A DNA stretch of 64,000 bases from Treponema sp. (lineage in GTDB: Bacteria; Spirochaetota; Spirochaetia; Treponematales; Treponemataceae). The notes beneath the pieces are model-generated. The model made no database searches, had not been told where the DNA came from, and saw only the letters and a program-made list of their open reading frames with translations. The translations under genes and the position numbers were made by a program. Shown one piece after another: positions 11,464 through 61,644 of the stretch. The stretch is from assembly GCA_036300185.1 (NCBI GenBank), contig JAXJGY010000051.1:44693-108692 (forward strand), written 5' to 3'. Position 1 is the first letter of the stretch. The number at the start of each line of letters is the position of its first letter.

Positions 11464-11913
11464 TTACAGTTTTTTATGACATTCTGTACAACCAATGATG
11501 TGAACATGTCTTCTGCCTGATTTTTGCATAGTCATGCGGGCAACTAAGGAACCTGTCATGGGAACGGGACGTCCACAAACTGGGCAGCTACGTCGTTTTT
11601 TCTTTTGTCCATCTTTACTGTAGCAAAAGGGGCAGCCTTGTATAGTACAGTGCTGATCATCATCTAATTGGGATGATAAGGGGCGATATATCTTTGAAAA
11701 CAGATTTATTCCTGGTGTTAAGGTTGAATCACACAGGGGGCAATAGGTCTTGGTGGGTGAGTTGCTCTTTTGTGGTTTTTGCTCCTCTTTCTTTGGCTTC
11801 TTATTTTTTCCATCATAATAGTTTTTTGCCATTTCTACATATTTGCTGAAAAGAAAAAGAATTAAACCTATGAGAGCCCCAATGGCAATAATGATAAATA
11901 AATCGCTGCCCAT
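11464..11913 (-). CDS. Hypothetical membrane-anchored Cys-rich (multi-CxxC, zinc-ribbon-like) protein
   Basis: N-terminal TM helix (LFIIIAIGALIGLILFLF), a Lys-rich linker, then CPLC...CTIQGCPFC...CPVC...CTEC. Starts 4 nt after the ALDH stop. Confidence 0.5.
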   Translation of the reverse strand: MGSDLFIIIAIGALIGLILFLFSKYVEMAKNYYDGKNKKPKKEEQKPQKSNSPTKTYCPLCDSTLTPGINLFSKIYRPLSSQLDDDQHCTIQGCPFCYSKDGQKKKRRSCPVCGRPVPMTGSLVARMTMQKSGRRHVHIIGCTECHKKL

Positions 11914-11917
11914 ATTT

Positions 11918-13327
11918 CTATTTCAAAAACAATTTAATGAATTTAAGCTTACCCTCTTTATAAGGTGGGTATCTTAAGGATATATCGAATTTAGCAGGTC
12001 TAGAAAGGATAGCCTTCTGATAGCTAAAGGTGTCGAATCCTGCCTTTCCGTGATAATTACCCATTCCACTGTGGCCACTTCCACCAAAGGGAAGCTGAGA
12101 AGAAGCTCCATGAAGAAGGGTATCGTTTATACAACCACCACCATAAGGAAGGGTTTCTGTAACAAGTTTTTTTGTATTCTTGTCGGTACTAAAAAGATAC
12201 AATGCTAAGGGCTCTGGTTTTTCTTGAATGTAGCTCAAAGCCTCCTCTATGGTGTTGTAAGGGAGGATTGGCAAAATGGGGCCAAATATTTCATCCTGCA
12301 TAACAGGCGCATCTCCTTCTGGAGAATCCAATAGTATGGGTTTAATCTTCAAGGCTTCTCTGTTATAGCTTGCACCAGTAGGATTATTTGTTGTTACAAC
12401 TCCATTGGCAGGGTTATTGCCATTTGCTAGGTTTAAAAGACGGAAGAAATGACGTTCGTTCACAATGGAAGAAAGTGTACTATCTGGTGCCACAGGATTA
12501 TCTCCGTAAAACTCTTCCATACAAAAACACATTTTTTCCATTAATTCCTTGTGCTTGCTTGAGTCTACTAGCACATAATCTGGAGCAATGCAGTTTTGTC
12601 CGCTATTAATAAGCTTTCCCCAGATAATTCTTTTTGCAGCTGAATCTATATCAGCTGTAGCATCCACGATACAAGGATTTTTGCCACCTAACTCCAAGCA
12701 TACAGGAGTGAGATTTCTAGCAGCTGCTTCCATCACCTTTTTTCCAGCAGTGGCTCCACCAGTATAAAAAATAAAATCATACTTTTGAGTTAATAAGGAG
12801 TGGTGAATTTCGTTGCCACCTGTTACTATAGCTACTTGTTCTGAAGAAAAGGCTTCTTGGATGATAGTTTTTAAGAGTCGTTCTGATTCTTGTGCATGAT
12901 GAGAAGGCTTTAGAATAACACAATTTCCTGCACTTAATGCTGCAGCCAATGCCATTAAGGGTATTTGAAAAGGAAAATTCCATGGAGTAATTACAAGGGC
13001 GCAACCATAGGGCTGGGAAAGAGTCTTACTTATTCCTGGAAAGCTATGGAGTGGTGTTATGCGAAATTTAGGTTGTGCCCACCAAGTAAGTCGCCTTCTT
13101 AAAAAGTCGATTTCTTTTATGACTAGAGAAAATTCTGTAATATATGCTTCTGCAGTGGATTTTTGTAAATCCTTTGCCAGTGCTTCCAATATTTCATTTT
13201 GATATTTAAGCAGAATATTTTTGAGGCAAGCTAACTGTTCCTTGCGAAATTTTGTATCTTTTGTTTTACCTGTTAAAAAAAAAGCCCTCTGTGTGGCCAC
13301 TAACTCAGAAAGATCAGTTGAAATCAT
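11918..13327 (-). CDS. NAD(P)+-dependent aldehyde dehydrogenase (class-3-like)
   Basis: Catalytic Glu/Cys motifs CLELGGKNPCIV and INSGQNCIAPDYVLV. Start moved from track 13363 to ATG 13327 (MISTDLSELVATQRAFF). Confidence 0.85.
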   Translation of the reverse strand: MISTDLSELVATQRAFFLTGKTKDTKFRKEQLACLKNILLKYQNEILEALAKDLQKSTAEAYITEFSLVIKEIDFLRRRLTWWAQPKFRITPLHSFPGISKTLSQPYGCALVITPWNFPFQIPLMALAAALSAGNCVILKPSHHAQESERLLKTIIQEAFSSEQVAIVTGGNEIHHSLLTQKYDFIFYTGGATAGKKVMEAAARNLTPVCLELGGKNPCIVDATADIDSAAKRIIWGKLINSGQNCIAPDYVLVDSSKHKELMEKMCFCMEEFYGDNPVAPDSTLSSIVNERHFFRLLNLANGNNPANGVVTTNNPTGASYNREALKIKPILLDSPEGDAPVMQDEIFGPILPILPYNTIEEALSYIQEKPEPLALYLFSTDKNTKKLVTETLPYGGGCINDTLLHGASSQLPFGGSGHSGMGNYHGKAGFDTFSYQKAILSRPAKFDISLRYPPYKEGKLKFIKLFLK

Positions 13328-13365
13328 GACAAAAATTATACCTAGAAACAGTAAAATACACAATG
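13328..13365. repeat. 38-bp direct repeat, copy 1 (37/38 identical to 14663-14700)
   Basis: gacaaaaattatacctagaaacagtaaaatAcacaatg; lies immediately upstream of the ALDH start. Confidence 0.9.
13335..13363 (-). promoter_or_regulatory. Sigma-70-type promoter TTGTGT-N17-TATAAT, 7 nt upstream of the ALDH ATG (candidate leaderless)
   Basis: Minus strand reads TTGTGT attttactgtttctagg TATAAT ttttgtc ATG. Confidence 0.45.
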
Positions 13366-13469: not shown

Positions 13470-14201
13470 TTAGAACTTGAGGGCGTACCCCACAGAGATG
13501 TTGAAGTTGCGGCGGGTGAACAGCTCCATGGATTCACCTTCGGAGGCAATTGTCACGTTGGTGAAATCATTCACATACCGCAGGTCGGCAACGAGGGAGC
13601 CAGGACCAAGGGGCAGTCCTACCTCAACACCGGCAACAATGCCGGGGATAAATCTGGGGTCAATGTCAAACTCTTCTGTAAACTCTTTTTTCTCTTCCCC
13701 ATAGCCCTCTATTTTTGCGGTGTACTCCATCTTATATTTGAGCTTTCCCAGGGGGATGGAGAAATTCACACCAACCATGGGAGTAATCACCACGGGACCA
13801 GCAGAAATGTCGTAAGTTACAATTAGGGGGATATCCATGGAAAGATAGGTGCCGGAAGCGTTTCCTGTCACGTTGATTATACTTACATTGTCACGAATGT
13901 AACCATCGACCTCTAATGCTACTCCGTTGTTTGCAAATATGCCCAGCTCCAGCTGCACACCCAAGGGAGCGTGGGAGGGCATGTTGTAGCGGCCGTAGAT
14001 GGAGCCGCCACCGCCAACCACCAGCTTGCCAAATGAGGTGGTGCCAATGAAGTTTTCCATGCTGGCAACTGCTCTCCCTTCATCTGTAGTCGTTGAGCCC
14101 CAGTTCATTCCAAATGTTCCCTTTGCACCCACGGTAATCTGGGCACAAACCATGCTCACTGTAACTGCGGCCACCACGGCCATAGCAACAATCTTTTTCA
14201 T
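13470..14201 (-). CDS. Predicted outer-membrane beta-barrel protein
   Basis: Signal peptide MKKIVAMAVVAAVTVSMVCAQ, alternating amphipathic strands, C-terminal ...VGYALKF (terminal Phe), AAGGAG SD. Confidence 0.6.
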   Translation of the reverse strand: MKKIVAMAVVAAVTVSMVCAQITVGAKGTFGMNWGSTTTDEGRAVASMENFIGTTSFGKLVVGGGGSIYGRYNMPSHAPLGVQLELGIFANNGVALEVDGYIRDNVSIINVTGNASGTYLSMDIPLIVTYDISAGPVVITPMVGVNFSIPLGKLKYKMEYTAKIEGYGEEKKEFTEEFDIDPRFIPGIVAGVEVGLPLGPGSLVADLRYVNDFTNVTIASEGESMELFTRRNFNISVGYALKF

Positions 14202-37007: not shown

Positions 37008-38528
37008 TTGCATTATATGATATGGAGGATGACACCTGTTATTGAAAACCTATTAATGGATTTTATTCGCATTCAAACTGAAGAATTTTCTGCACAAGAT
37101 ATTCAAGAAGGTTTTTCCCATATTGGTGTAAATATGTCTACTGCAGAAATAGAGGCATATCTTGGAATGAATCCTTTTGTATTCTCTCTTGAAGGCGGTA
37201 CTTTTTTAACCCGAGCAGGAGCCTTTACAGGGGCTACCTTTACTATAAAGCCTACTACAAAAGAAATTGAAGGTGGCTACTTGTTGGTGGGCCATCGTTG
37301 TATTCCCTTTGTAGATTCAGAGCAATCATCTGGAGCTTTACGTTTTTCCTTTGATAACCAGATTCTTCCTCGAAAAATAATGGATTTTCCATTGCGAGAA
37401 GTGTTGCCATTTTTTTCCCTGTTTGGTGAGGAATATGCTATTCAGTTTATTCTTTCTGACCCTGCGGCTCGAGATAGTATGCTCCGTTCCTTTGAAGAGG
37501 AGCTCCCTCAAAGTGTAAGCTTAACGGTTATTGATTGTTCTAAGATTTTTAAAGACTGGAACTTTAAGCGGGGAGATTTGCTGTTAGCAGAAGTTATAGA
37601 TTGGCGCGGTGGAATTGTAAAAATTCATCCTCTCTGTAGCCACAAGGAAAATCCCTTTCAGCAGCAGCCTGTAGATCAACAACGAAACGACTGGTATAAG
37701 CTTTTTGAAAAAAGATTGCTGGAAAGCTTTGACGCTTATGGCCCCTGCGGAACTATAGAAGAACAGCTAGCACGAGTATTCTTTGTGTATCAAAAGGAAC
37801 TGTGCAAGGACATAGCTGGAACCATTGAAGAAGGCATCAAGCACTCTAAGGTTATTAGTATGGAGCCCTATGGAGTGGAAAGTCGTTTGTGGTTTAAAGG
37901 ACAGGAGGTGCCTGCAGTGGGCCCCTGGTTACAGCCAACTGATAGTGTAGAAGAAGGTGAGACTGCGGCATGGAGCAATGAGCAGCTTAATACTGAAATG
38001 ATGCTATGGCCTAGGGTAATCTTTGATTCTTGGATTGTTGATGGCTTATACAATAAAAAAAATAATGAAGAAACTCTTGTAAATTTGATTTTAGGGGAGT
38101 CAACTTCACCTTTAGATGTACTCAAAAGAAAGCGTCTCCAGGGAACAATACGATCACGAAGAAGCAAGCTGGAAGAAACATATAATTGGTTTGCGGATTT
38201 TGAGCGAGGACCAGTTCGTCATCGTTTATTAGAGCTGCATACAAAGGTTTTTGCTCTGGTGCTGGAGCTAGACGATGTGGATGACCAGCTAGAAGGATTT
38301 CCTCAGCAGCCCTTGGTAATTCTCTCTCAGCTTTCAACTCATATTCAATATATGTTGGAAAGCCTGTTACGTGACATAAATCTCAAGGATGAGGATGTCC
38401 GAGCAATGGCTGCTTCCTTGGAAGGTATGGAATATAATTTTGAGGAAGTGTCTGCAGAGCTAAAGTCAGCATTGGCAGCAAGCTATAAGAGTCGGTTTAC
38501 TGTCATTAAAGGTGATAAAAAACAATAG
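37008..38528 (+). CDS. Hypothetical protein (~500 aa), no recognisable domain
   Basis: Long uninterrupted ORF, acidic, no motif I can assign. Start uncertain (TTG 37008, ATG 37017 or 37029). Confidence 0.5.
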   Translation: MHYMIWRMTPVIENLLMDFIRIQTEEFSAQDIQEGFSHIGVNMSTAEIEAYLGMNPFVFSLEGGTFLTRAGAFTGATFTIKPTTKEIEGGYLLVGHRCIPFVDSEQSSGALRFSFDNQILPRKIMDFPLREVLPFFSLFGEEYAIQFILSDPAARDSMLRSFEEELPQSVSLTVIDCSKIFKDWNFKRGDLLLAEVIDWRGGIVKIHPLCSHKENPFQQQPVDQQRNDWYKLFEKRLLESFDAYGPCGTIEEQLARVFFVYQKELCKDIAGTIEEGIKHSKVISMEPYGVESRLWFKGQEVPAVGPWLQPTDSVEEGETAAWSNEQLNTEMMLWPRVIFDSWIVDGLYNKKNNEETLVNLILGESTSPLDVLKRKRLQGTIRSRRSKLEETYNWFADFERGPVRHRLLELHTKVFALVLELDDVDDQLEGFPQQPLVILSQLSTHIQYMLESLLRDINLKDEDVRAMAASLEGMEYNFEEVSAELKSALAASYKSRFTVIKGDKKQ

Positions 38529-55521: not shown

Positions 55522-56274
55522 CTACTGGGGATTTTTCTGATTTAAGTAATCCTGCCCCACCTGCTCCTGTTCCCAGCTACAGACAATCTTGTAGCCCAGA
55601 CCAGAAAAAAGTACCTCGCACAGCAATTCCCACACCGCTTGAATCAGGGCACAGACAATAACTTGAGTCCAAGTCCAGCCAAAGAAGATTTTTGACACGG
55701 TGGTGGTGAAAATCAGGTTGTCCACCAGCTGGGCTAGGGCAGTGGAAACGTATGAACGCAGGGCAAAGGCCTTAAAGCCTGCCAGTTTTGTGGTGGCTCC
55801 AATCCAGCTGTTGAGGCCAGCGTTCACCAAAGAAGAAATGAGAAAGGCCAGAGAAGATCCTAGTACTACGTACCAGGATCCACCAAAGGTGGCATTCAAG
55901 GCAATATTCACTTCTTCCAAGCCGCTGTCGTAAAAGGAACCCCACATACCAGGGGCCAATGACAGCAGGGCAAAGGAAAGGCATACTCCCAGATTGATGA
56001 CCAAAGCTAGCACTGAAACCTTCAGCGAAGCCTTGCCGCCCCATCGCTTGCAGATTACATCCATGCACAGGAACATAATCCAGCTAAAAACGGTGCCGCA
56101 GTCCAAAGCCACATACTTGTAGTTGATTAATTCCTTGTTTGCCATGAGGTTGGCGCAAACAACGGAAAGAACAAAGAGGGTGATGGTCAGGGAAGGAATG
56201 CTTCGCATCAAAAGCTTAAAGTCATCATATTCCCGTCTCATCCACATACAGGGATTTGAAAGAAATTTTTTCAT
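55522..56274 (-). CDS. yhhQ: Queuosine-precursor transporter (YhhQ/DUF165, VUT family)
   Basis: 250 aa, polytopic. ...ALDCGTVFSWIMFLCMDVICKRWGGKAS... and ...ALAQLVDNLIFT... are typical of YhhQ. Confidence 0.75.
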   Translation of the reverse strand: MKKFLSNPCMWMRREYDDFKLLMRSIPSLTITLFVLSVVCANLMANKELINYKYVALDCGTVFSWIMFLCMDVICKRWGGKASLKVSVLALVINLGVCLSFALLSLAPGMWGSFYDSGLEEVNIALNATFGGSWYVVLGSSLAFLISSLVNAGLNSWIGATTKLAGFKAFALRSYVSTALAQLVDNLIFTTTVSKIFFGWTWTQVIVCALIQAVWELLCEVLFSGLGYKIVCSWEQEQVGQDYLNQKNPQ

Positions 56275-56345
56275 AGCTCCTCCTTAAGGATTTTAATTTC
56301 TTATGCGCAGGAGTTTTTGAGGAATCATAAACTGCGCAGCATGGA

Positions 56346-56373
56346 GAATATAGGCTTGGGAGAAATCTGTCAA
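56346..56373 (-). promoter_or_regulatory. Possible sigma-70 promoter of yhhQ
   Basis: Minus strand reads TTGACA-N15/16-TATATT(C). The spacing is short, hence low confidence. Confidence 0.3.
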
Positions 56374-56441
56374 GTTCCTCTACCATAAACTATTTTTCAG
56401 ATTCTTAGACAAACTTCTTGTCCGCTCCAGTGAAGTTTTTC

Positions 56442-56470
56442 TTGACTTATTCGATAATAATTTATAGAAT
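56442..56470 (+). promoter_or_regulatory. Sigma-70 promoter of the hydrogenase cluster
   Basis: TTGACT-N17-TAGAAT, ~18 nt upstream of the ATG at 56489, with AAGGA as SD. Confidence 0.45.
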
Positions 56471-56488
56471 ATTCAAAAGGATTTTAGT

Positions 56489-56728
56489 ATGATTACGGTT
56501 ACAATTTGTATGGGAAGCTCTTGCTTCAGTCGTGGTAATGCAGGAACAGCGGAGGCCATACAGCGGTATGTTGCTGAAAATGGTCTACAGGATAAGGTTG
56601 CCGTTCGTGGTTGTCTCTGTGAAGGTGAATGTAAGAATGGTCCTAATATCCGTGTTGACGACACCTTGTATGAAAATGTATCTCCCGATATGGCAGTAGA
56701 CATTATCAGTCGTCAGTTGGAGGATTGA
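56489..56728 (+). CDS. Thioredoxin-like [2Fe-2S] mini-ferredoxin (NuoE/HydC-C-terminal-like), 79 aa
   Basis: Cys pattern CMGSSC...CLCEGEC with GPNIRVDD. Confidence 0.7.
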   Translation: MITVTICMGSSCFSRGNAGTAEAIQRYVAENGLQDKVAVRGCLCEGECKNGPNIRVDDTLYENVSPDMAVDIISRQLED

Positions 56729-56730
56729 AC

Positions 56731-58485
56731 ATGACCTTGCAGCCTCCTATTCATACAGAACCTACTCAGTGTCAAGACTGCTACAAATGTATCCGCCATT
56801 GTCCAGTAAAGGCCATCCGTGTAGAAAACAATCACGCCAAGATTATCCCTGAGCTTTGTGTCTATTGTGGACAATGCGTTATTGATTGTCCTCCCCATGC
56901 AAAACAAACACGAGGAGACGGACAGTGGGCACGCCATCTTTTGGCTACAAAAAAACAGGTTTATGTTTCCTTGGCTCCCTCCTTTGTATCAGAATTCTCC
57001 GATTATACTCCCCAACAGCTGATTGCTGCTCTAAAACGCCTTGGCTTTGCAGGTGTATCTGAGACAGCTCTCGGTGCAGACTTTGTTTCTGCCCAACTAG
57101 CCAAGGACTTGGCTCTGGCTGTGGAAGATCCCCAGGGACAAAAGCTCTTCCTTTCCTCTGCCTGTCCTGCAGTGGTGGAATACATTAAGCTGTATCAGCC
57201 TGAGCTTGCTCCCTGCATTACAGACCGTGCTTCTCCCTTGTTGGCTCATGCCCGCTATCTGCGCAAGGTATACGGCAATGACATTGGCTTGGTTTTTGTG
57301 GGCCCTTGTATTGCAAAAAAACGTGAGGCCGACGCTTGGGACGAAATCGATGTAGCCCTTACCTTTCAGGAGCTCAGAGAATGGCTTGAAGAAGAAGGTC
57401 TGCGTCCAGATACTGCAATTCCTGTGGGGCAAGAAAATCAGCAGGATTTTGTGCCTCGTCGGGCTGCAAAGGGTGTTTTGTATCCCATTGACGGTGGAAT
57501 GATTGCCACCTACAAAAAATATGACCGTCTTGGAAAAGTTCGCTCCATGGCAATTTCTGGACTTGAAGAAGTACAGCGTGCCTTGGAGGGCTTTGACCCA
57601 GAGAATCTCACGGCTCCCGTGTTTATGGAGCTTTTGGCCTGTCATGGTGGCTGTATCAACGGGCCTGGAACCTCCGTTCATTCTCCCGGGGCTCTGAGGC
57701 GGGTTTTGGTGGAAGAATATGCCCAAGATGTGGATCTGGTACTGGATGAATCTACCGTGGCACAATCTCCTGTAATGGAGGGCACCCTACCAGTTTTTGT
57801 CGGTGAGAACAAGAGATATAGCGAGGAGGATATTAAGACAGCCCTTCGCTCTGTAGGTAAATATACCTTAGAGGACGAGGTAAACTGTGCCAGCTGTGGT
57901 TACGATACCTGTCGCTCCTTTGCAAGAGCCGTTTTGGAGGATCGAGCAGAAAAAACCATGTGCGTTTCCTACATGAGAAAGCTGGCTCAGAAAAAGGCCA
58001 ATGGTCTTATCCAGGCTATTCCCAGCGGTGTTGTCATTGTAGACAAGAACCTGCAGATTGTGGAATGTAACATGAACTTTGCCCGTCTTATGGGAAGCGA
58101 TGTGGTGGATATGTATCAGCTAAAGCCGGGCTTGGAGGGTGCAGATTTAACTCGCCTTACCTTTGCCGCCAAGCTTTTTGCCGATGTACTGAGTCGTAGT
58201 GGGCCTGATGTTATTGAGCGAGACGTGCGGGAAGGCAAGAAAATCTTCCACGTAACGGTTTTCGAAATTGAGCGGGAAGAAATCGCTGCTGGTGTTTTAG
58301 AGGATATTACTGTGCCTAAAAACCAGCGGGAAAGAACTATTACTCAGGCACAAAAGGTTATCGAAAAGAACCTTTCCGTAGTGCAAAAAATCGCCTTCTT
58401 GTTGGGAGAAAATGCTGCAGAAACAGAATCAATGCTGAATTCCATCATCGAATCCTACAGTGATGGGGAGGAGGCTTCTCCGTGA
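56731..58485 (+). CDS. hydS: Sensory-type [FeFe]-hydrogenase (HydS-like, group C): 2x[4Fe-4S] + H-cluster domain + Cys4 motif + PAS
   Basis: CQDCYKCIRHCP and CVYCGQCVIDCP. H-cluster motifs FLSSACPAV, FVGPCIAKKRE, ELLACHGGCINGPG. CASCGYDTCRSF...C. PAS-like LIQAIPSGVVIVDKNLQIVECNMNFARLMG. ATG 56731 after GGAGGA. Confidence 0.8.
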   Translation: MTLQPPIHTEPTQCQDCYKCIRHCPVKAIRVENNHAKIIPELCVYCGQCVIDCPPHAKQTRGDGQWARHLLATKKQVYVSLAPSFVSEFSDYTPQQLIAALKRLGFAGVSETALGADFVSAQLAKDLALAVEDPQGQKLFLSSACPAVVEYIKLYQPELAPCITDRASPLLAHARYLRKVYGNDIGLVFVGPCIAKKREADAWDEIDVALTFQELREWLEEEGLRPDTAIPVGQENQQDFVPRRAAKGVLYPIDGGMIATYKKYDRLGKVRSMAISGLEEVQRALEGFDPENLTAPVFMELLACHGGCINGPGTSVHSPGALRRVLVEEYAQDVDLVLDESTVAQSPVMEGTLPVFVGENKRYSEEDIKTALRSVGKYTLEDEVNCASCGYDTCRSFARAVLEDRAEKTMCVSYMRKLAQKKANGLIQAIPSGVVIVDKNLQIVECNMNFARLMGSDVVDMYQLKPGLEGADLTRLTFAAKLFADVLSRSGPDVIERDVREGKKIFHVTVFEIEREEIAAGVLEDITVPKNQRERTITQAQKVIEKNLSVVQKIAFLLGENAAETESMLNSIIESYSDGEEASP

Positions 58486-59726
58486 TGCCCTTAGACAATC
58501 AGCAGTCTCAAAATGAACAGCCTTCTCTAGGCAGGGAAACCTTCGTTGAAGTTGGCTATTACCAGCTCTGCAAATATAATCAGCGGGCAGAAGGCGATGT
58601 TTTTCTGTCTCAAAAAAATCCCAGCGACGGGCGTGTTATTACCACCCTGTCCGACGGCTTGGGCTCTGGAATCAAGGCGGGAGTGTTGGCTACATTGACC
58701 GCCACCATGGCTACAAAGTTCATTGCCAACGACATCTCCATTCGGCGGGCGGCGGAAATCATTATGAATACTCTGCCTGTTTGTAAGGACAGAGGTATTA
58801 GCTATGCTACCTTTACCTTGGTAGACATTGAGCCCGATGCTACGGTTCGTATTATAGAGTATGACAATCCGCCCTACGTGCTGGTGCGGCAGGAAACGGT
58901 AATCGATCCCATCAAGGACATTACTCCCATTCAGCGAAAGGACAAGACCACCGCCCCAAAACGAGAGGCCTTGTTGCATTACTCCCGTTACGAAGCCCGC
59001 CCAGGAGACCGATTGATTTTCTTCTCCGACGGTGTAACTCAGTCTGGAATGGGTAGTCCTTGCCATCCCTTTGGCTGGGGAAGCAACAATGTACAGGATT
59101 TTATTCTGGAAGAAATCAAGGGAAATCCTCTTATTAGTGCCCGTGAGTTGGCTCGCAGGGTAGTGCAGGAGGCAAGTCTCCACGACGGATACAAGCCCAA
59201 GGACGACATCACCTGTGGTGTTGTCTACTTCCGAAATCCACGAGACCTGCTGATTATTACTGGGCCTCCGCTGCACAAGGAGCGGGATGTGGAATTAGCC
59301 ACCCTCTTTAACCTCTTTGATGGCAACAAGATCATTTGCGGTGGAACTACCGCCAACATCCTTTCCAGAGAGCTGAATCGGCCTATTACCGTGAACCTAA
59401 AGGACTTTGATCCCAAGGTTCCTCCCTGCTCACAGATGGAAGGAGCAACCATGGTAACAGAGGGAATCATTACCATGGGTGCTGTGTCGGAGATGCTGGA
59501 AAAAGGCGGTGATATAGACAGCCTCAAGCCCAATGCAGCTACCCGCATGGTGGAACAATTTTTGAACTGCGACAGAATTTGGTTTGTGGTGGGAACAAAA
59601 ATCAACGAAGCCCACCAGGACCCAAATATGCCAGTGGAGTTGGAAATTCGGCGTAACGTGGTAAAAAAGATTGCCTCGTTGTTGCAGGAAAAATATTTGA
59701 AGGAAACCCATATTCAATACTTCTAA
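58485..59726 (+). CDS. PP2C/SpoIIE-family serine phosphatase
   Basis: GDVFLSQKNPSDGRVITTLSDGLGSGIKAGVLATL and RLIFFSDGVTQ. ATG overlaps the hydS stop (TGATG). Confidence 0.7.
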   Translation: MPLDNQQSQNEQPSLGRETFVEVGYYQLCKYNQRAEGDVFLSQKNPSDGRVITTLSDGLGSGIKAGVLATLTATMATKFIANDISIRRAAEIIMNTLPVCKDRGISYATFTLVDIEPDATVRIIEYDNPPYVLVRQETVIDPIKDITPIQRKDKTTAPKREALLHYSRYEARPGDRLIFFSDGVTQSGMGSPCHPFGWGSNNVQDFILEEIKGNPLISARELARRVVQEASLHDGYKPKDDITCGVVYFRNPRDLLIITGPPLHKERDVELATLFNLFDGNKIICGGTTANILSRELNRPITVNLKDFDPKVPPCSQMEGATMVTEGIITMGAVSEMLEKGGDIDSLKPNAATRMVEQFLNCDRIWFVVGTKINEAHQDPNMPVELEIRRNVVKKIASLLQEKYLKETHIQYF

Positions 59727-59782
59727 TCTGGTACGAATAGGGTATAATAATACTGATCCGAATAATTTTATGGAGGAATACA

Positions 59783-60037
59783 ATGAAAAAGATTAAGGTT
59801 TCAATCTGTACAGGAACAGCTTGCTTTGTAATGGGTGCTTCTGAAATTATGTTGCTGGAAGATGAGCTTACTCCAGAGCTGAAGGAAATTGTGGAGATTG
59901 AAGGTGTAACCTGTCTTGAGTTGTGCAAGAACTCTGAGTACGGTAAGGCTCCCTTTGTTAAGATTAATGATGAAGTCGTGAGCCAAGCAACATTGCCTTT
60001 GGTTGTGGAAAAAATTCGCCAGTTGGCAGCAGAATAA
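59783..60037 (+). CDS. Thioredoxin-like [2Fe-2S] mini-ferredoxin, 84 aa (paralogue of 56489-56728)
   Basis: CTGTAC...CLELC Cys4 pattern with the same fold signature (APFVKINDE); GGAGG SD. Confidence 0.65.
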   Translation: MKKIKVSICTGTACFVMGASEIMLLEDELTPELKEIVEIEGVTCLELCKNSEYGKAPFVKINDEVVSQATLPLVVEKIRQLAAE

Positions 60038-60080
60038 TTTTTGTAATCTTGGCTTTTAGTTTTTAGGAAGGAGATTCGTT

Positions 60081-61550
60081 ATGCTTAATATAAATAATCA
60101 GGCTGCCCATTTGAAAAGGGAGATCCTTGTTCGTATTGCCAAGCTTCAGTTGGAAGGAAAGCTAGAGGAGGGAGTTCACTATATTCCTCGGGAAATGGCA
60201 CCTCTAGGAAAGGAGCCCCTGCGTTGCTGTATCTATCATGATAGAGAAATTTTGCGAATGCGAGTTATGGCTCGTCTTGGTCATAGTGTTGAAGATTACG
60301 ATGATGAAAAGAAGCTGTCAGAATTTGCAAAAGAGGCTCTAGAGCGAGAAAAGCCTACCTGGCCCATGCTTACTGTTTTGCACGAAGCCTGTAATGCCTG
60401 TGTTAAGGCTCACTACATGGTAACAAATGCCTGTCAGGCCTGTCTTGCCCGTCCTTGTATGACAAACTGTGGCAAGCACTGTATCGAAATCAAAAACGGA
60501 CGTGCCCACATTGACGAAGAAGCCTGTGTAAACTGCGGTCTTTGTATGCAGAACTGTCCCTATCACGCCATCATCAAGATTCCCGTTCCCTGCGAAGAAT
60601 CCTGCCCAGTAGGTGCAATTACAAAGGATGAGACTGGAAAGGAGCAGATTGATTATCACAAGTGTATTTTCTGCGGAAACTGCATGAGAGAATGTCCCTT
60701 TGGCGCTATGATGGATAAGAGCCAGCTGGTGGATGTTATCAAGCATATTATGAATGGCCGAAAGGTTGTGGCTATGTATGCTCCTGCCGTTGCCGCTCAG
60801 TTTAGAGTTGCTCCTGGTCAGCTGGAAGGTGCTTTGAAGGAATTGGGATTTTCTCGCATTTGGGAGGTTGCTATTGGTGCAGATATTACCTCCGACAATG
60901 AGGCCAAGGAATTTGAGGAGCGCATGGAAGCAGGTCACAAGATGATGACCACCTCCTGCTGTCCTGCCTATGTACGAGCCGTTCGCCGTCACGTACCTGA
61001 GCTAGAATCCTGTATTTCTGAAACCCACACTCCCATGCATTATACTGCAGAGCTGGCTCGCAAGGCTGACCCAGATGCTGTTACTGTATTTATTGGGCCT
61101 TGTCTTGCCAAGCGCCGAGAAGGAATGGACGATGAGTTTGTAGACTATGTTCTTTCTGTGGAAGAGATTGGTGCCTTCTTGATTGCCAAGGATGTAGATG
61201 TAGCCAAGGTTGCTGCTGCTCCTGATGCAACCGTTCCTACTGCTTCTGGTAGAGGCTTTGCTGCTAGTGGTGGTGTTGCAGAAGCAGTACGTATCCGTCT
61301 CAAGCACCCAGAAAAGCTTCGGGCAGCAGTTATCAACGGACTTACTGGCAACGGTATGAAGCAGTTGGCCACCTTCGGTAAGATGAACGCAGGAACCCTT
61401 CCTTACACCGACCAAAGCCCCAACTTGGTGGAGGTTATGGCTTGTGAAGGCGGTTGTATTGCGGGGCCATCGGTAATTACCAACCCCAAGGTTGCTAATA
61501 TGCAGCTGAAAAAGTACATGGAAGCAGGTGTTTCAAATCCTGCAAACTAA
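60081..61550 (+). CDS. hydA: [FeFe]-hydrogenase, catalytic type (group-B-like architecture with Cys-rich N-terminal domain and two ferredoxin motifs)
   Basis: CVNCGLCMQNCP and CIFCGNCMRECP. Canonical H-cluster motifs MMTTSCCPAY, FIGPCLAKRRE, EVMACEGGCIAGP. Confidence 0.85.
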   Translation: MLNINNQAAHLKREILVRIAKLQLEGKLEEGVHYIPREMAPLGKEPLRCCIYHDREILRMRVMARLGHSVEDYDDEKKLSEFAKEALEREKPTWPMLTVLHEACNACVKAHYMVTNACQACLARPCMTNCGKHCIEIKNGRAHIDEEACVNCGLCMQNCPYHAIIKIPVPCEESCPVGAITKDETGKEQIDYHKCIFCGNCMRECPFGAMMDKSQLVDVIKHIMNGRKVVAMYAPAVAAQFRVAPGQLEGALKELGFSRIWEVAIGADITSDNEAKEFEERMEAGHKMMTTSCCPAYVRAVRRHVPELESCISETHTPMHYTAELARKADPDAVTVFIGPCLAKRREGMDDEFVDYVLSVEEIGAFLIAKDVDVAKVAAAPDATVPTASGRGFAASGGVAEAVRIRLKHPEKLRAAVINGLTGNGMKQLATFGKMNAGTLPYTDQSPNLVEVMACEGGCIAGPSVITNPKVANMQLKKYMEAGVSNPAN

Positions 61551-61644
61551 AATATAAATTACGTCTTTCTTCAGTAATATGAAAGTAGGAGCAGGTGGGG
61601 TGTGGCTCCTCCATATCTCACCTCTTTTACTTTTGCTGGAGCTA

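Follow-up and report, generated by a model that had tools for sequence, protein, structure and literature searches.

Whether a compact hydrogenase locus of Treponema sp. encodes an H2-sensing switch, and whether such a switch would be a new system, are the questions raised by the 64-kb stretch of DNA analysed here (hereafter the window). Between positions 56442 and 61633 of the forward strand lie a promoter, five close-set co-directional genes and a terminator, and ORF coordinates together with Pfam searches gave the gene order small [2Fe-2S] protein, HydS, PP2C, small [2Fe-2S] protein and 489-aa hydrogenase (Table 1). All five ORFs were found where an earlier note on this DNA had placed them. 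The promoter that it described was also recovered: CTTGAC and TTATA.A.T were invariant at this position in five Treponema species, with diverged flanks, and the promoter scan by itself was within chance (13 sites found versus 8.8 expected). The promoter ends 18 nt upstream of the g1 ATG, indicating a very short 5' leader. The stretch from the promoter at 56442 to the terminator at ~61630 is likely one operon, with the hairpin as its end. The locus sits amid housekeeping genes, including a block of ribosomal-protein-like ORFs, which suggests a chromosomal rather than a plasmid location.

Table 1. Coordinates of the promoter, genes, domains and terminator-like hairpin of the locus within the window
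Feature	Positions	Strand	Evidence
Promoter, sigma-70-type, TTGACT-N17-TAGAAT	56442..56470	+	10/12 consensus positions
g1, thioredoxin-like [2Fe-2S] protein, 79 aa, C-x4-C ... C-x3-C	56489..56728	+	PF01257, 36.1 bits (cut-off 24.8)
g2, HydS, putative sensory [FeFe]-hydrogenase, 584 aa, group C (M2f) architecture	56731..58485	+	Pfam, motifs, R. albus alignment
HydS N-terminal domain, two CxxCxxCxxxCP [4Fe-4S] motifs	56758..56901	+	Fer4, Fer4_10
HydS H-domain, SSACP / GPCIAKKRE / ELLACHGGC	56953..57666	+	Fe_hyd_lg_C, 4e-48; alignment with g5
HydS C-terminal Cx2Cx4Cx16C, accessory [4Fe-4S] cluster motif	57880..57966	+	PF04060, 33.3 bits
HydS PAS domain	58006..58314	+	Family profile; 33/39 orthologues match PAS_8
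HydS helical tail, ~50 aa 3' of PAS, ..VQxIAxLLGENAAETE..	58327..58482	+	Q, A, G, E and L invariant across 39 orthologues
g3, PP2C/SpoIIE-family Ser/Thr phosphatase, 414 aa	58482..59726	+	SpoIIE, 60.5 bits (cut-off 25)
g3 C-terminal alpha/beta domain, aa 252-414, GGTTA, TEG, VGT.IN.AHQDP, RR	59235..59723	+	Conserved; homologues
g4, second thioredoxin-like [2Fe-2S] protein, 84 aa	59783..60037	+	PF01257, 31.1 bits (cut-off 24.8)
g5, monomeric [FeFe]-hydrogenase, 489 aa, group B / HydA2-type	60081..61550	+	TIGR04105, 546 bits (cut-off 450)
Intrinsic-terminator-like hairpin, 13-bp stem, then CTTTTACTTT	61593..61633	+	T-run 3' of g5

Two starts are available for g2, TTG at 56725 and ATG at 56731. 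The ATG, which gives 584 aa, was preferred because it lies 6 nt after GGAGGA and fits the 584-aa orthologues. Pfam detected two Fer4 motifs, Fe_hyd_lg_C and the PF04060 FeS motif in g2, in agreement with the two ferredoxin motifs, the H-cluster motifs and the extra Cys4 motif that had been read from the letters. When g2 and g5 were aligned, g2 showed SSACP, GPCIAKKRE and ELLACHGGCINGP, and g5 showed the canonical TSCCP, GPCLAKRRE and EVMACEGGCIAGP, confirming that HydS keeps four of four H-cluster cysteines and has Ala in place of the proton-relay Cys. Among 71 PP2C-linked HydS proteins, 68 carry another residue in place of the relay Cys, 63-67 retain the H-cluster ligands, and the four cysteines of Cx2Cx4Cx16C, a motif defined for group C/D enzymes (PMC8163306), are invariant in all 71. 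In its domains and motifs, HydS shows group C (M2f) architecture. The downstream enzyme yielded Fer4 motifs and Fe_hyd_lg_C (1e-55); its assignment as a prototypical group A hydrogenase was rejected on the TIGR04105 score (Table 1).

A C-terminal PAS domain had likewise been proposed for HydS. The match on g2 alone (E 0.0035) is under the Pfam cut-off, and it was the family-level profiles that bore the domain out: among 39 orthologous C-termini, 33 matched PAS_8 and 28 matched PAS (E <= 0.01), and a profile of the 39 matched the Aer2 PAS (4hi4, E 3.3e-4) and the YtvA LOV domain (2pr5, E 2e-3). The helical tail behind it is a candidate output or docking helix.

The small protein g1 is likely a redox partner or subunit of HydS, and in 67 loci HydS has a small 2Fe-2S ORF ahead of it. 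Such a dedicated, nearly always co-encoded partner would suit a HydS that senses cellular redox (the reduced ferredoxin or NADH pool, via g1 and the [4Fe-4S] chain) instead of H2, in which case the H-cluster would mainly be an electron sink or source setting the state of the accessory clusters, and PP2C would report reductant pressure. The NADH sensor Rex adjoins the fdx-HydS-PP2C trio in 7 loci and is present in the Ruminococcus albus cluster, the HfsB PAS has been described as possibly responsive to redox potential (PMC11837493), and the C-terminal cluster of TamHydS, a group D and not a group C enzyme, is not reduced by H2 (PMC13104023), which, for H2 sensing, counts against a simple redox relay through that cluster. 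However, the retained H-cluster ligands would be a costly upkeep unless H2 chemistry matters, regulation in R. albus follows the H2 level (PMC6776011), and TamHydS combines a high H2 affinity (PMC8163306) with an H2-induced change of secondary structure (reference 48 in PMC13104023). We consider redox sensing in place of H2 sensing unlikely.

At the junction of g2 and g3, ccGTGATGcc, the hydS stop TGA (58483-58485) overlaps both candidate PP2C starts, GTG at 58482 and ATG at 58485, and the Shine-Dalgarno sequence GGAGGAGG lies upstream. Among related loci, a 4-nt overlap occurs more often than any other arrangement (21 loci). The stop/start overlap that had been pointed out is thus present; the 1:1 stoichiometry drawn from it is what such an overlap might suggest. 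In g3 the motifs that bind metal (GD, DGLGSG, SDG and DD) are conserved, the catalytic Asp/Gly motifs being invariant or nearly so, and the fold matched 3pu9, SpoIIE, the RsbU domain of Rv1364c and RsbX. The C-terminal alpha/beta domain (~160 aa) is always present in this phosphatase, and homologues of ~390 aa align end to end. Searches of Pfam families and PDB sequences gave no match for this domain, nor did its AF2 model (pLDDT 88) match any PDB fold at E <= 1e-3. The model predicts a nucleotide/phosphate-binding-like alpha/beta fold with a GGTT loop, with weak similarity to the methylglyoxal synthase (MGS) fold (TM 0.41-0.43; hhalign probability 12-17%).

Kinase, STAS and anti-sigma genes were absent from the scanned parts of the window (1-14.2, 30.6-40.7 and 45-64 kb), and none recurred beside 81 related loci. 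This absence and the predicted fold of the conserved extra domain would both fit an output of the same H2 sensing that is directly post-translational, where PP2C removes phosphate from the co-encoded hydrogenase, from its ferredoxin or from AdhE, or the C-terminal domain binds a phosphorylated metabolite, with no partner-switching or transcriptional relay; so would the enzyme-activity changes in hfs mutants that adhE transcript changes leave partly unexplained (PMC5707799). The weak MGS similarity speaks against it, as does the 111-fold change of cluster transcripts in R. albus (PMC6776011). Moreover, the attached hydrogenase varies by lineage (group B or HydABC), making one conserved direct PP2C substrate among hydrogenases unlikely. 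We regard a direct output as highly improbable.

PP2C proved to be a conserved neighbour of hydS. Among the 72 loci with enough upstream sequence, 70 had a HydS-like gene immediately 5' of PP2C on the same strand, and the loci span Spirochaetota, Acidobacteriota, Bacteroidota, Desulfobacterota and other phyla. Judged by gene order, the trio is a near-invariant core across phyla that is coupled to differing hydrogenases. A group B hydrogenase follows it in 21/69 loci, with a small ferredoxin between PP2C and the hydrogenase in 20 of the 21; bifurcating HydABC (HydB/HydC) adjoins it in about 30 loci, and AdhE in 7. In the window, the intervening g4, which shares 28% identity with g1, is likely the electron-transfer partner of g5.

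The tight packing and overlap of the genes could also be taken to mean that the five proteins make up a single catalytic hydrogenase of several subunits (the original 'Hfs hydrogenase' view), with HydS as a second, slow subunit for catalysis or electron input and the PP2C-like protein as a structural or assembly factor without signalling output. Hydrogenase activity falls when the entire hfs operon is deleted (PMC5707799), and HfsABC without HfsD has been raised as a possible functional hydrogenase (PMC13277313). However, 48/69 loci have the trio but no group B hydrogenase, the trio also lies beside the unrelated HydABC, its PP2C keeps invariant metal-binding motifs, as a scaffold would not be expected to, deletion of hfsB raises hydrogenase activity (PMC5707799), and the widespread loss of the relay Cys does not suit a catalytic role. 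A single catalytic complex is very unlikely indeed.

We favour, with a probability of roughly 0.72, a module made up of a putative H2 sensor and a fermentative hydrogenase thought to be governed by it, in which PP2C signals via a partner encoded elsewhere. When H2 binds or is slowly turned over at the H-cluster, HydS would change its redox state or its conformation, and it would exchange electrons via its N-terminal clusters and g1. The PAS domain and tail would pass this change to bound PP2C and switch its activity towards a phospho-Ser/Thr protein encoded elsewhere, the nearest structural relatives acting on STAS-type partner-switching proteins. In this way the cell might adjust how strongly the HydA2-type hydrogenase and enzymes of the ethanol branch, for example AdhE, are expressed, and perhaps how active they are, so that reductant disposal as H2 or ethanol would track the ambient H2 level. 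The sensor reading is supported by architecture, R. albus orthology, synteny, PP2C fold, relay-Cys loss, promoter conservation and the published results on R. albus, on hfs mutants and on TmHydS and TamHydS, and HydS showed neither loss of H-cluster ligands, nor a non-PAS C-terminus, nor an unconserved PP2C neighbour. Weighing against it are the lack of a kinase, STAS or anti-sigma gene in the scanned parts of the window or as a recurrent neighbour of the 81 loci, the behaviour of the TamHydS C-terminal cluster and the hfsD result described below. We infer the regulatory role of the module in Treponema as in other organisms; no experiment in any organism has shown an H2-dependent phosphatase activity or its substrate (PMC13277313, 2026).

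As to novelty, the locus is a copy, from a gut Treponema, of a five-gene operon that has been described before, a version of the hfs / hydS-PP2C-hydA2 module whose layout is known. HydDB lists the class as group C3, 'phosphatase-linked (putative)' (PMC5037454), and papers up to 2026 call the mechanism unknown (PMC13277313, PMC13104023), in line with the state of knowledge given in the earlier note. Its description of a poorly described system holds for the mechanism but not for the gene set, which has been studied genetically and transcriptionally as hfsABCD (PMC5707799, PMC11837493) and in R. albus (PMC6776011). A phosphatase on a protein of its own is thus usual in this class, and the 'split' module is no peculiarity. 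What is added here is the conservation of the trio, its two types of attachment, the C-terminal domain of the phosphatase and the lack of a conserved kinase or STAS neighbour.

The closest counterpart is the pRUMAL01 cluster of Ruminococcus albus 7, rex-adhE-kinase (phosphotransferase)-fdx-fdx-hydS-PP2C-hydA2 (PMC6776011; Zheng et al. 2014, as cited in PMC10055695), whose expression falls 111-fold once H2 is taken away by a partner organism (PMC6776011). Each of the five window proteins has its counterpart in this cluster as best match: HydS with 32% identity over its full length (residues 14-580), PP2C with 32% over its full length including the C-terminal domain, g5 with 36% to HydA2 (also TIGR04105, 577 bits) and g1 with 33% to the first of the two ferredoxins. 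The order hydS-PP2C-hydA2 and the tight spacing are common to both, whereas R. albus has tandem small ferredoxins before hydS and the spirochaete has one ahead of each hydrogenase. The Treponema cluster has no adjoining rex, adhE or kinase-like gene, and the R. albus kinase-like gene had no homologue in the window or in any of the 81 related loci.

The hfsABCD operons of Thermoanaerobacterium saccharolyticum and T. thermosaccharolyticum, compared by published description, share the layout: small HfsA precedes the PAS-bearing [FeFe]-hydrogenase HfsB, the Ser phosphatase HfsC and HfsD, a ferredoxin-linked hydrogenase resembling R. albus HydA2, and genetics indicate a regulatory role for HfsA and HfsB (PMC5707799, PMC11837493). 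They have four genes, whereas Treponema has five, with a second small [2Fe-2S] gene before the catalytic hydrogenase. Deletion of hfsA or hfsB, but not of hfsC or hfsD, leads to higher adhE transcript, hydrogenase activity and ethanol yield (PMC5707799). In a delta-hfsABCD strain of T. thermosaccharolyticum, hfsD by itself is enough to restore the ethanol phenotype (PMC11837493), so part of the hfs phenotype may be metabolic and not signalling.

The C3 / M2f enzyme of Thermotoga maritima, TmHydS, likewise has two N-terminal [4Fe-4S] motifs, Cx2Cx4Cx16C, a C-terminal PAS and an adjoining Ser/Thr phosphatase gene (PMC5037454, PMC8163306, PMC10055695), and both TmHydS and TamHydS work slowly and with high affinity (PMC8163306, PMC10055695). 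Neither the Treponema nor the Thermotoga H-domain has the C299 relay Cys, and both carry Gly at M353; at M497 they differ, with Leu in Treponema HydS and Ser in TmHydS.

PP2C phosphatases of the RsbP / RsbU / SpoIIE type (structures 5ucg, 3ke6 and 3w40) serve partner-switching systems, and RsbP also couples a PAS domain to PP2C. By fold and motifs g3 belongs to the same subfamily; however, the Treponema PAS is on a separate protein, g3 has a unique C-terminal alpha/beta domain in place of an N-terminal regulatory domain, and no gene for a STAS substrate or anti-sigma kinase lies near the locus. A further parallel is the [NiFe] HoxBC-HoxJ-HoxA system of Cupriavidus/Ralstonia, in which, according to PMC5707799, H2 is sensed by a crippled hydrogenase coupled to a PAS signalling partner that controls hydrogenase genes; the proteins are unrelated, and Hox signals through a His kinase and a response regulator where the Treponema module has a Ser/Thr phosphatase.

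The five genes that the earlier note had described as co-directional and tightly packed behind a TTGACT-N17-TAGAAT promoter were present from 56442 to 61550, and with this promoter and a terminator made of a 13-bp hairpin and a T-run they form one compact unit. The ORF listing reaches further upstream for hydS, with an alternative TTG start at 56725; the ATG start was preferred because GGAGGA lies 6 nt upstream of it and the orthologues are 584 aa. The overlap between the hydS stop and the start of the PP2C phosphatase gene was seen again at the junction ccGTGATGcc, where the stop codon TGA overlaps both possible starts of g3, and a Shine-Dalgarno sequence, GGAGGAGG, lies upstream of the g3 start. 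The promoter scan returned 13 sites versus 8.8 expected by chance, which is not above chance. Despite this, the promoter call is well supported, since an alignment of upstream regions revealed that neither CTTGAC and TTATA.A.T nor their distance from the start codon varied among five Treponema species, while the surroundings had diverged. An inverted repeat touching the -35 box, AGACAAACTTC-N14-GAAGTTTTTCT, was considered as an operator, and this reading was dropped because the repeat is not conserved past the closest relative.

Features of the operon and its surroundings in the window, with identity of the products to their R. albus pRUMAL01 counterparts
Feature	Position	Strand	Product	Identity to R. 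albus counterpart
Whole unit	56442 to ~61633	+		
Promoter TTGACT-N17-TAGAAT	56442-56470	+		
g1, small [2Fe-2S] protein	56489-56728	+	79 aa	small ferredoxin, 33%
g2, HydS	ATG 56731 to 58485	+	584 aa	HydS, 32% (residues 14-580)
Post-PAS tail of HydS (aa 535-586)	58327-58482	+	~50 aa	
g3, PP2C/SpoIIE phosphatase	58482-59726	+	414 aa	PP2C, 32% (C-terminal domain included)
g4, small [2Fe-2S] protein	59783-60037	+	84 aa	
g5, HydA2-type hydrogenase	60081-61550	+	489 aa	HydA2, 36%
Terminator	61593-61633	+		
Inverted repeat (rejected as operator)	56407-56442			
Upstream intergenic region	56275-56488			
Promoter-like site	56373-56345	-		
Vut_1-family gene	55522-56274	-		
Aldehyde dehydrogenase family gene	11918-13363	-	481 aa	
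ORF without Pfam family	37008-38528	+	506 aa	
ORF without Pfam family	13470-14201	-	243 aa	
ORF without Pfam family	11464-11913	-	149 aa	

The operon shares its upstream intergenic region with a divergent Vut_1-family gene (vitamin/queuosine-precursor transporter-like), and a promoter-like site lies on the minus strand of this region. Considering the Vut_1/queuosine-precursor type of the transporter, a riboswitch was looked for in the intergenic region, and the Rfam search gave no match. A search of the whole 64-kb window for tRNA genes found none, and no Rfam family reached the gathering threshold there. Genes in the flanks have functions unrelated to the operon (FtsK, a dicarboxylate symporter, a rhomboid protease, MatE, the Vut_1 transporter, a HAD hydrolase and an AMP-binding enzyme), and ~15-30 kb is a block of ribosomal-protein-like ORFs. 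An aldehyde dehydrogenase family gene (Aldedh 8e-79, with a weak match to LuxC acyl-CoA reductase) lies 43 kb from the operon; for its product, a role in the ethanol branch as an acetaldehyde/CoA-acylating dehydrogenase is possible. Three further sizeable ORFs were without a Pfam family at E ≤ 1e-4.

The motifs that had been read from the 584-aa product were all recovered. Its H-domain matched Fe_hyd_lg_C (4e-48), and two CxxCxxCxxxCP motifs, CQDCYKCIRHCP and CVYCGQCVIDCP, fell within Fer4 and Fer4_10 matches. Alignment with g5 and PDB hydrogenases revealed all four H-cluster Cys, in SSACP, GPCIAKKRE and ELLACHGGC, where g5 carries TSCCP, GPCLAKRRE and EVMACEGGC. The proton-relay Cys (CpI C299) is thus Ala in the PAS-bearing copy (SSACP), whereas it is kept in g5 (TSCCP), and Ala occupied this position in 37/40 members of the close family of HydS. 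The extra Cys4 motif is CASCGYDTC-x16-C at aa 386-414, with a PF04060 'FeS' match of 33.3 bits; exactly this Cx2Cx4Cx16C spacing is given in the literature as the hallmark of putative sensory enzymes of groups C and D (PMC8163306, PMC13104023).

On the single HydS sequence the PAS call was weak, with matches below the cut-off (E 5.7e-4 to 3.5e-3), and the domain was therefore examined across the family. The C-termini of 39 HydS orthologues were combined into a profile, which in a search of the PDB matched the PAS domain of Aer2 (E 3.3e-4) and the LOV domain of YtvA (E 2e-3). Of the 39 orthologues, 33 and 28 matched PAS_8 and PAS, respectively, in support of the PAS-like segment of the earlier note. 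A PAS domain beyond the C-terminal cluster is the feature that separates group C from group D. The best full-length match of g2 was R. albus HydS (282 bits), whereas only the H-domain matched HydA2 (119 bits). Architecture and this match support the assignment of g2 as a group C (M2f) putative sensory HydS. A PDB search with g2 returned group A enzymes only, at 1e-21 or weaker, and no solved group C HydS structure. Behind the PAS domain lies a helical tail with the consensus ..EVIxKNLxTVQxIAxLLGENAAETExxLNSII.., of which five residues were invariant across the 39 orthologues from several phyla. No mention of it was found in the literature on these systems; the tail may form a surface that the phosphatase contacts.

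g3 is a phosphatase of the SpoIIE/PP2C family: it matched PF07228 with 60.5 bits (cut-off 25), the metal-binding motifs GD, DGxGxG, SDG and DD were conserved, and a Foldseek search with its AF2 model (pLDDT 84.6) returned 3pu9 at 1e-13 and SpoIIE at 1e-12, as well as RsbX and, in Rv1364c, the RsbU domain. No sequence identical to the window PP2C was on record, and relatives were used instead. Both g1 and g4 exceeded the PF01257 cut-off of 24.8 (36.1 and 31.1 bits, respectively), matching the C-terminal half of the profile alone; they carry the ligand set C-x4-C ... C-x3-C, share 28% identity, and are short thioredoxin-like [2Fe-2S] proteins. g5 matched TIGR04105 'monomeric [FeFe] hydrogenase, B1' over profile positions 2-461 of 462 with 546 bits (curated cut-off 450), and is of group B / HydA2-type, not group A.

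The nearest relatives of g3 were Treponema proteins, and the best-matching locus among the matches listed was from a Treponema MAG of water-buffalo colon (96% identity). The same five genes were present in T. brennaborense in a different neighbourhood. At E ≤ 1e-30 the PP2C family comprised 344 clusters (50% identity), nearly all of ~390 aa and aligned end to end, and a scan of species-representative genomes gave at least 592 confirmed relatives, of which the best 80, plus T. brennaborense, were analysed as 81 loci. Conservation of PP2C as a neighbour of hydS held: a HydS-like gene lay immediately upstream on the same strand in 70/72 loci with at least 2.1 kb of upstream sequence, and 67 of these loci also had a small [2Fe-2S] gene ahead of HydS. 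A 4-nt overlap was the commonest geometry of the HydS stop and PP2C start (21 loci). Where 2.2 kb or more of downstream sequence was available (69 loci), a group B-type hydrogenase was located within 900 nt in 21 loci, and a second small ferredoxin stood between PP2C and hydrogenase in 20 of these 21. About 30 other loci, mostly of Bacteroidales, had a NuoF-like HydB and a NuoE-like HydC nearby together with group A-type large subunits, indicating bifurcating HydABC. AdhE (7 loci), Rex (7) and a HydE/G-like radical-SAM gene (5) were also among the neighbours. The conserved unit is ferredoxin, HydS and PP2C, not the hydrogenase, and this trio is portable between hydrogenase types.

Within the 71 PP2C-linked HydS proteins the C-terminal four Cys were invariant (71/71), the relay Cys was replaced in 68 (Ala in 40, Asn in 24), and the H-cluster ligands were kept in 63-67, one or more Cys ligands being missing in 4-8. 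HydS keeps its H2-binding cofactor site with the proton relay disabled, and its obligatory genetic partners are a small [2Fe-2S] protein and a PP2C that appears active. A variant group of 30 PP2C-linked proteins of ~620 aa, mostly from Bacteroidota (L030, L036, L042, L047 and L050 among the related loci, and others), has Phe at the M497 position and, in 24/30, Asn at the relay-Cys position; these proteins may not bind a normal H-cluster. Lys358 was replaced in 30/71, a number that was counted over all 71 proteins and equals the size of the variant group. In Marinifilum spp. (L044, 4439-10709; L055, 4432-10709) tandem HydS-PP2C modules, one Ala-type and one variant-type, were separated by a small 2Fe-2S gene.

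In homologous systems, loss of the sensor alters adhE expression and hydrogenase activity, the R. albus cluster responds strongly to H2 removal, and HydS enzymes, once purified, work slowly and with a high affinity for H2. Two rival readings are that redox is sensed instead of H2 and that the proteins form a purely catalytic holoenzyme. In the H2-sensing reading, the state of the H-cluster would be passed via the C-terminal cluster, the PAS domain and the tail to PP2C, which would then dephosphorylate a protein encoded elsewhere. This output would tune expression of the HydA2-type hydrogenase and the ethanol-branch enzymes, with direct post-translational control as the rival at this step. In structure, the nearest relatives of the PP2C all target STAS-type proteins, which favours a partner-switching output, although no such partner is encoded nearby. 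Unlike a partner-switching module, the locus is not accompanied by a STAS substrate or an anti-sigma Ser kinase: the larger window ORFs scanned (1-14.2, 30.6-40.7 and 45-64 kb) included neither a kinase, STAS or anti-sigma gene nor hydEFG, and no kinase, STAS or anti-sigma neighbour recurred among the 81 loci.

The phosphatase also carries an extra C-terminal domain (residues 252-414) that is conserved family-wide, with the motifs GGTTA, TEG, VGT.IN.AHQDP and RR. No Pfam family matched it, whether on its own or in the 47 orthologues searched, a PDB sequence search gave none, and neither a mention in the literature on these systems nor a database description was found. Modelled by itself (AF2, pLDDT 88.2), the domain takes a three-layer alpha/beta fold, for which Foldseek returned no match at E ≤ 1e-3. 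The single high-probability match was methylglyoxal synthase (MGS) of T. maritima (1vmd, E 5e-3, TM 0.41/0.43), a weak resemblance to a phosphate-binding fold. In view of this match and of the resemblance between GGTTANILSR and GTTGNLISR, the domain was compared with MGS genes, namely E. coli mgsA and nine others of diverse origin. The hhalign probability was 12-17% over just 25-29 columns around the GGTT loop, and Pfam MGS matched none of the members; homology was not established, and the domain is left without an assignment. It is conceivable, if improbable, that this always-present domain is a second input module binding a phosphorylated metabolite or nucleotide, so that the trio would integrate H2 and metabolic state with no dedicated kinase, possibly acting directly on a metabolic enzyme. 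If true, this would be a signalling logic without a described precedent among PP2C phosphatases or hydrogenases.

In gut and rumen fermenters, sensory [FeFe]-hydrogenases are regarded as setting the H2/acetate/ethanol balance, and hence the H2 supply of methanogens, and the window adds a spirochaete example of such a module. The class is already known and genetically studied. The mechanistic question is real, but the Treponema copy is no more tractable for it than the R. albus and Thermoanaerobacterium models. The question is sharpened by useful leads, namely the conserved trio, the lack of a kinase or STAS partner travelling with it and the undescribed phosphatase domain; these comparative leads leave the kind of system unchanged.

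The interpretation as a sensor/phosphatase module is supported, and clusters of just this type have been published. HydDB recognises 'C3, phosphatase-linked (putative)' and 'B, colonic-type (putative)' classes (PMC5037454), in line with the phosphatase-linked subgroup named in the earlier note; like C3, g2 is encoded with a Ser/Thr phosphatase, its stop overlapping the phosphatase start. In Thermoanaerobacterium, the [FeFe]-hydrogenase HfsB bears a PAS domain, HfsC is a Ser phosphatase, and HfsD, a hydrogenase linked to ferredoxin, resembles HydA2 of R. albus (PMC11837493). The window shares the hfsABCD order of small FeS protein, PAS hydrogenase, phosphatase and ferredoxin-linked hydrogenase, the Hfs proteins being compared by description and the sequence check made via R. 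albus. Deletion of hfsA or hfsB raised adhE transcript, hydrogenase activity and ethanol yield, whereas deletion of hfsC, hfsD or the whole operon gave no such rise (PMC5707799).

The R. albus locus was taken straight from the pRUMAL01 plasmid record, where the order is rex, adhE, phosphotransferase, 2Fe-2S, 2Fe-2S, HydS, SpoIIE, HydA2. Among the eight genes of this cluster are adhE and those for a group C sensory hydrogenase, a phosphatase subunit and the ferredoxin-only hydrogenase; the cluster was 111-fold down on H2 removal (PMC6776011). The 'phosphotransferase' (6040-6789 of L083, the pRUMAL01 locus) is kinase-like, APH/Bud32-like and TIGR02172-related below the cut-off; it had no homologue in the window or any of the 81 loci, and is therefore not a conserved part of the module. 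Unlike R. albus, where the two small ferredoxins are in tandem, the window has one before each hydrogenase, and its cluster is without an adjacent rex or adhE and without the kinase-like gene. Nevertheless, each window protein best-matched its pRUMAL01 counterpart, and R. albus HydA2 is also in TIGR04105 (577 bits), indicating that the window locus is a spirochaete member of the known class.
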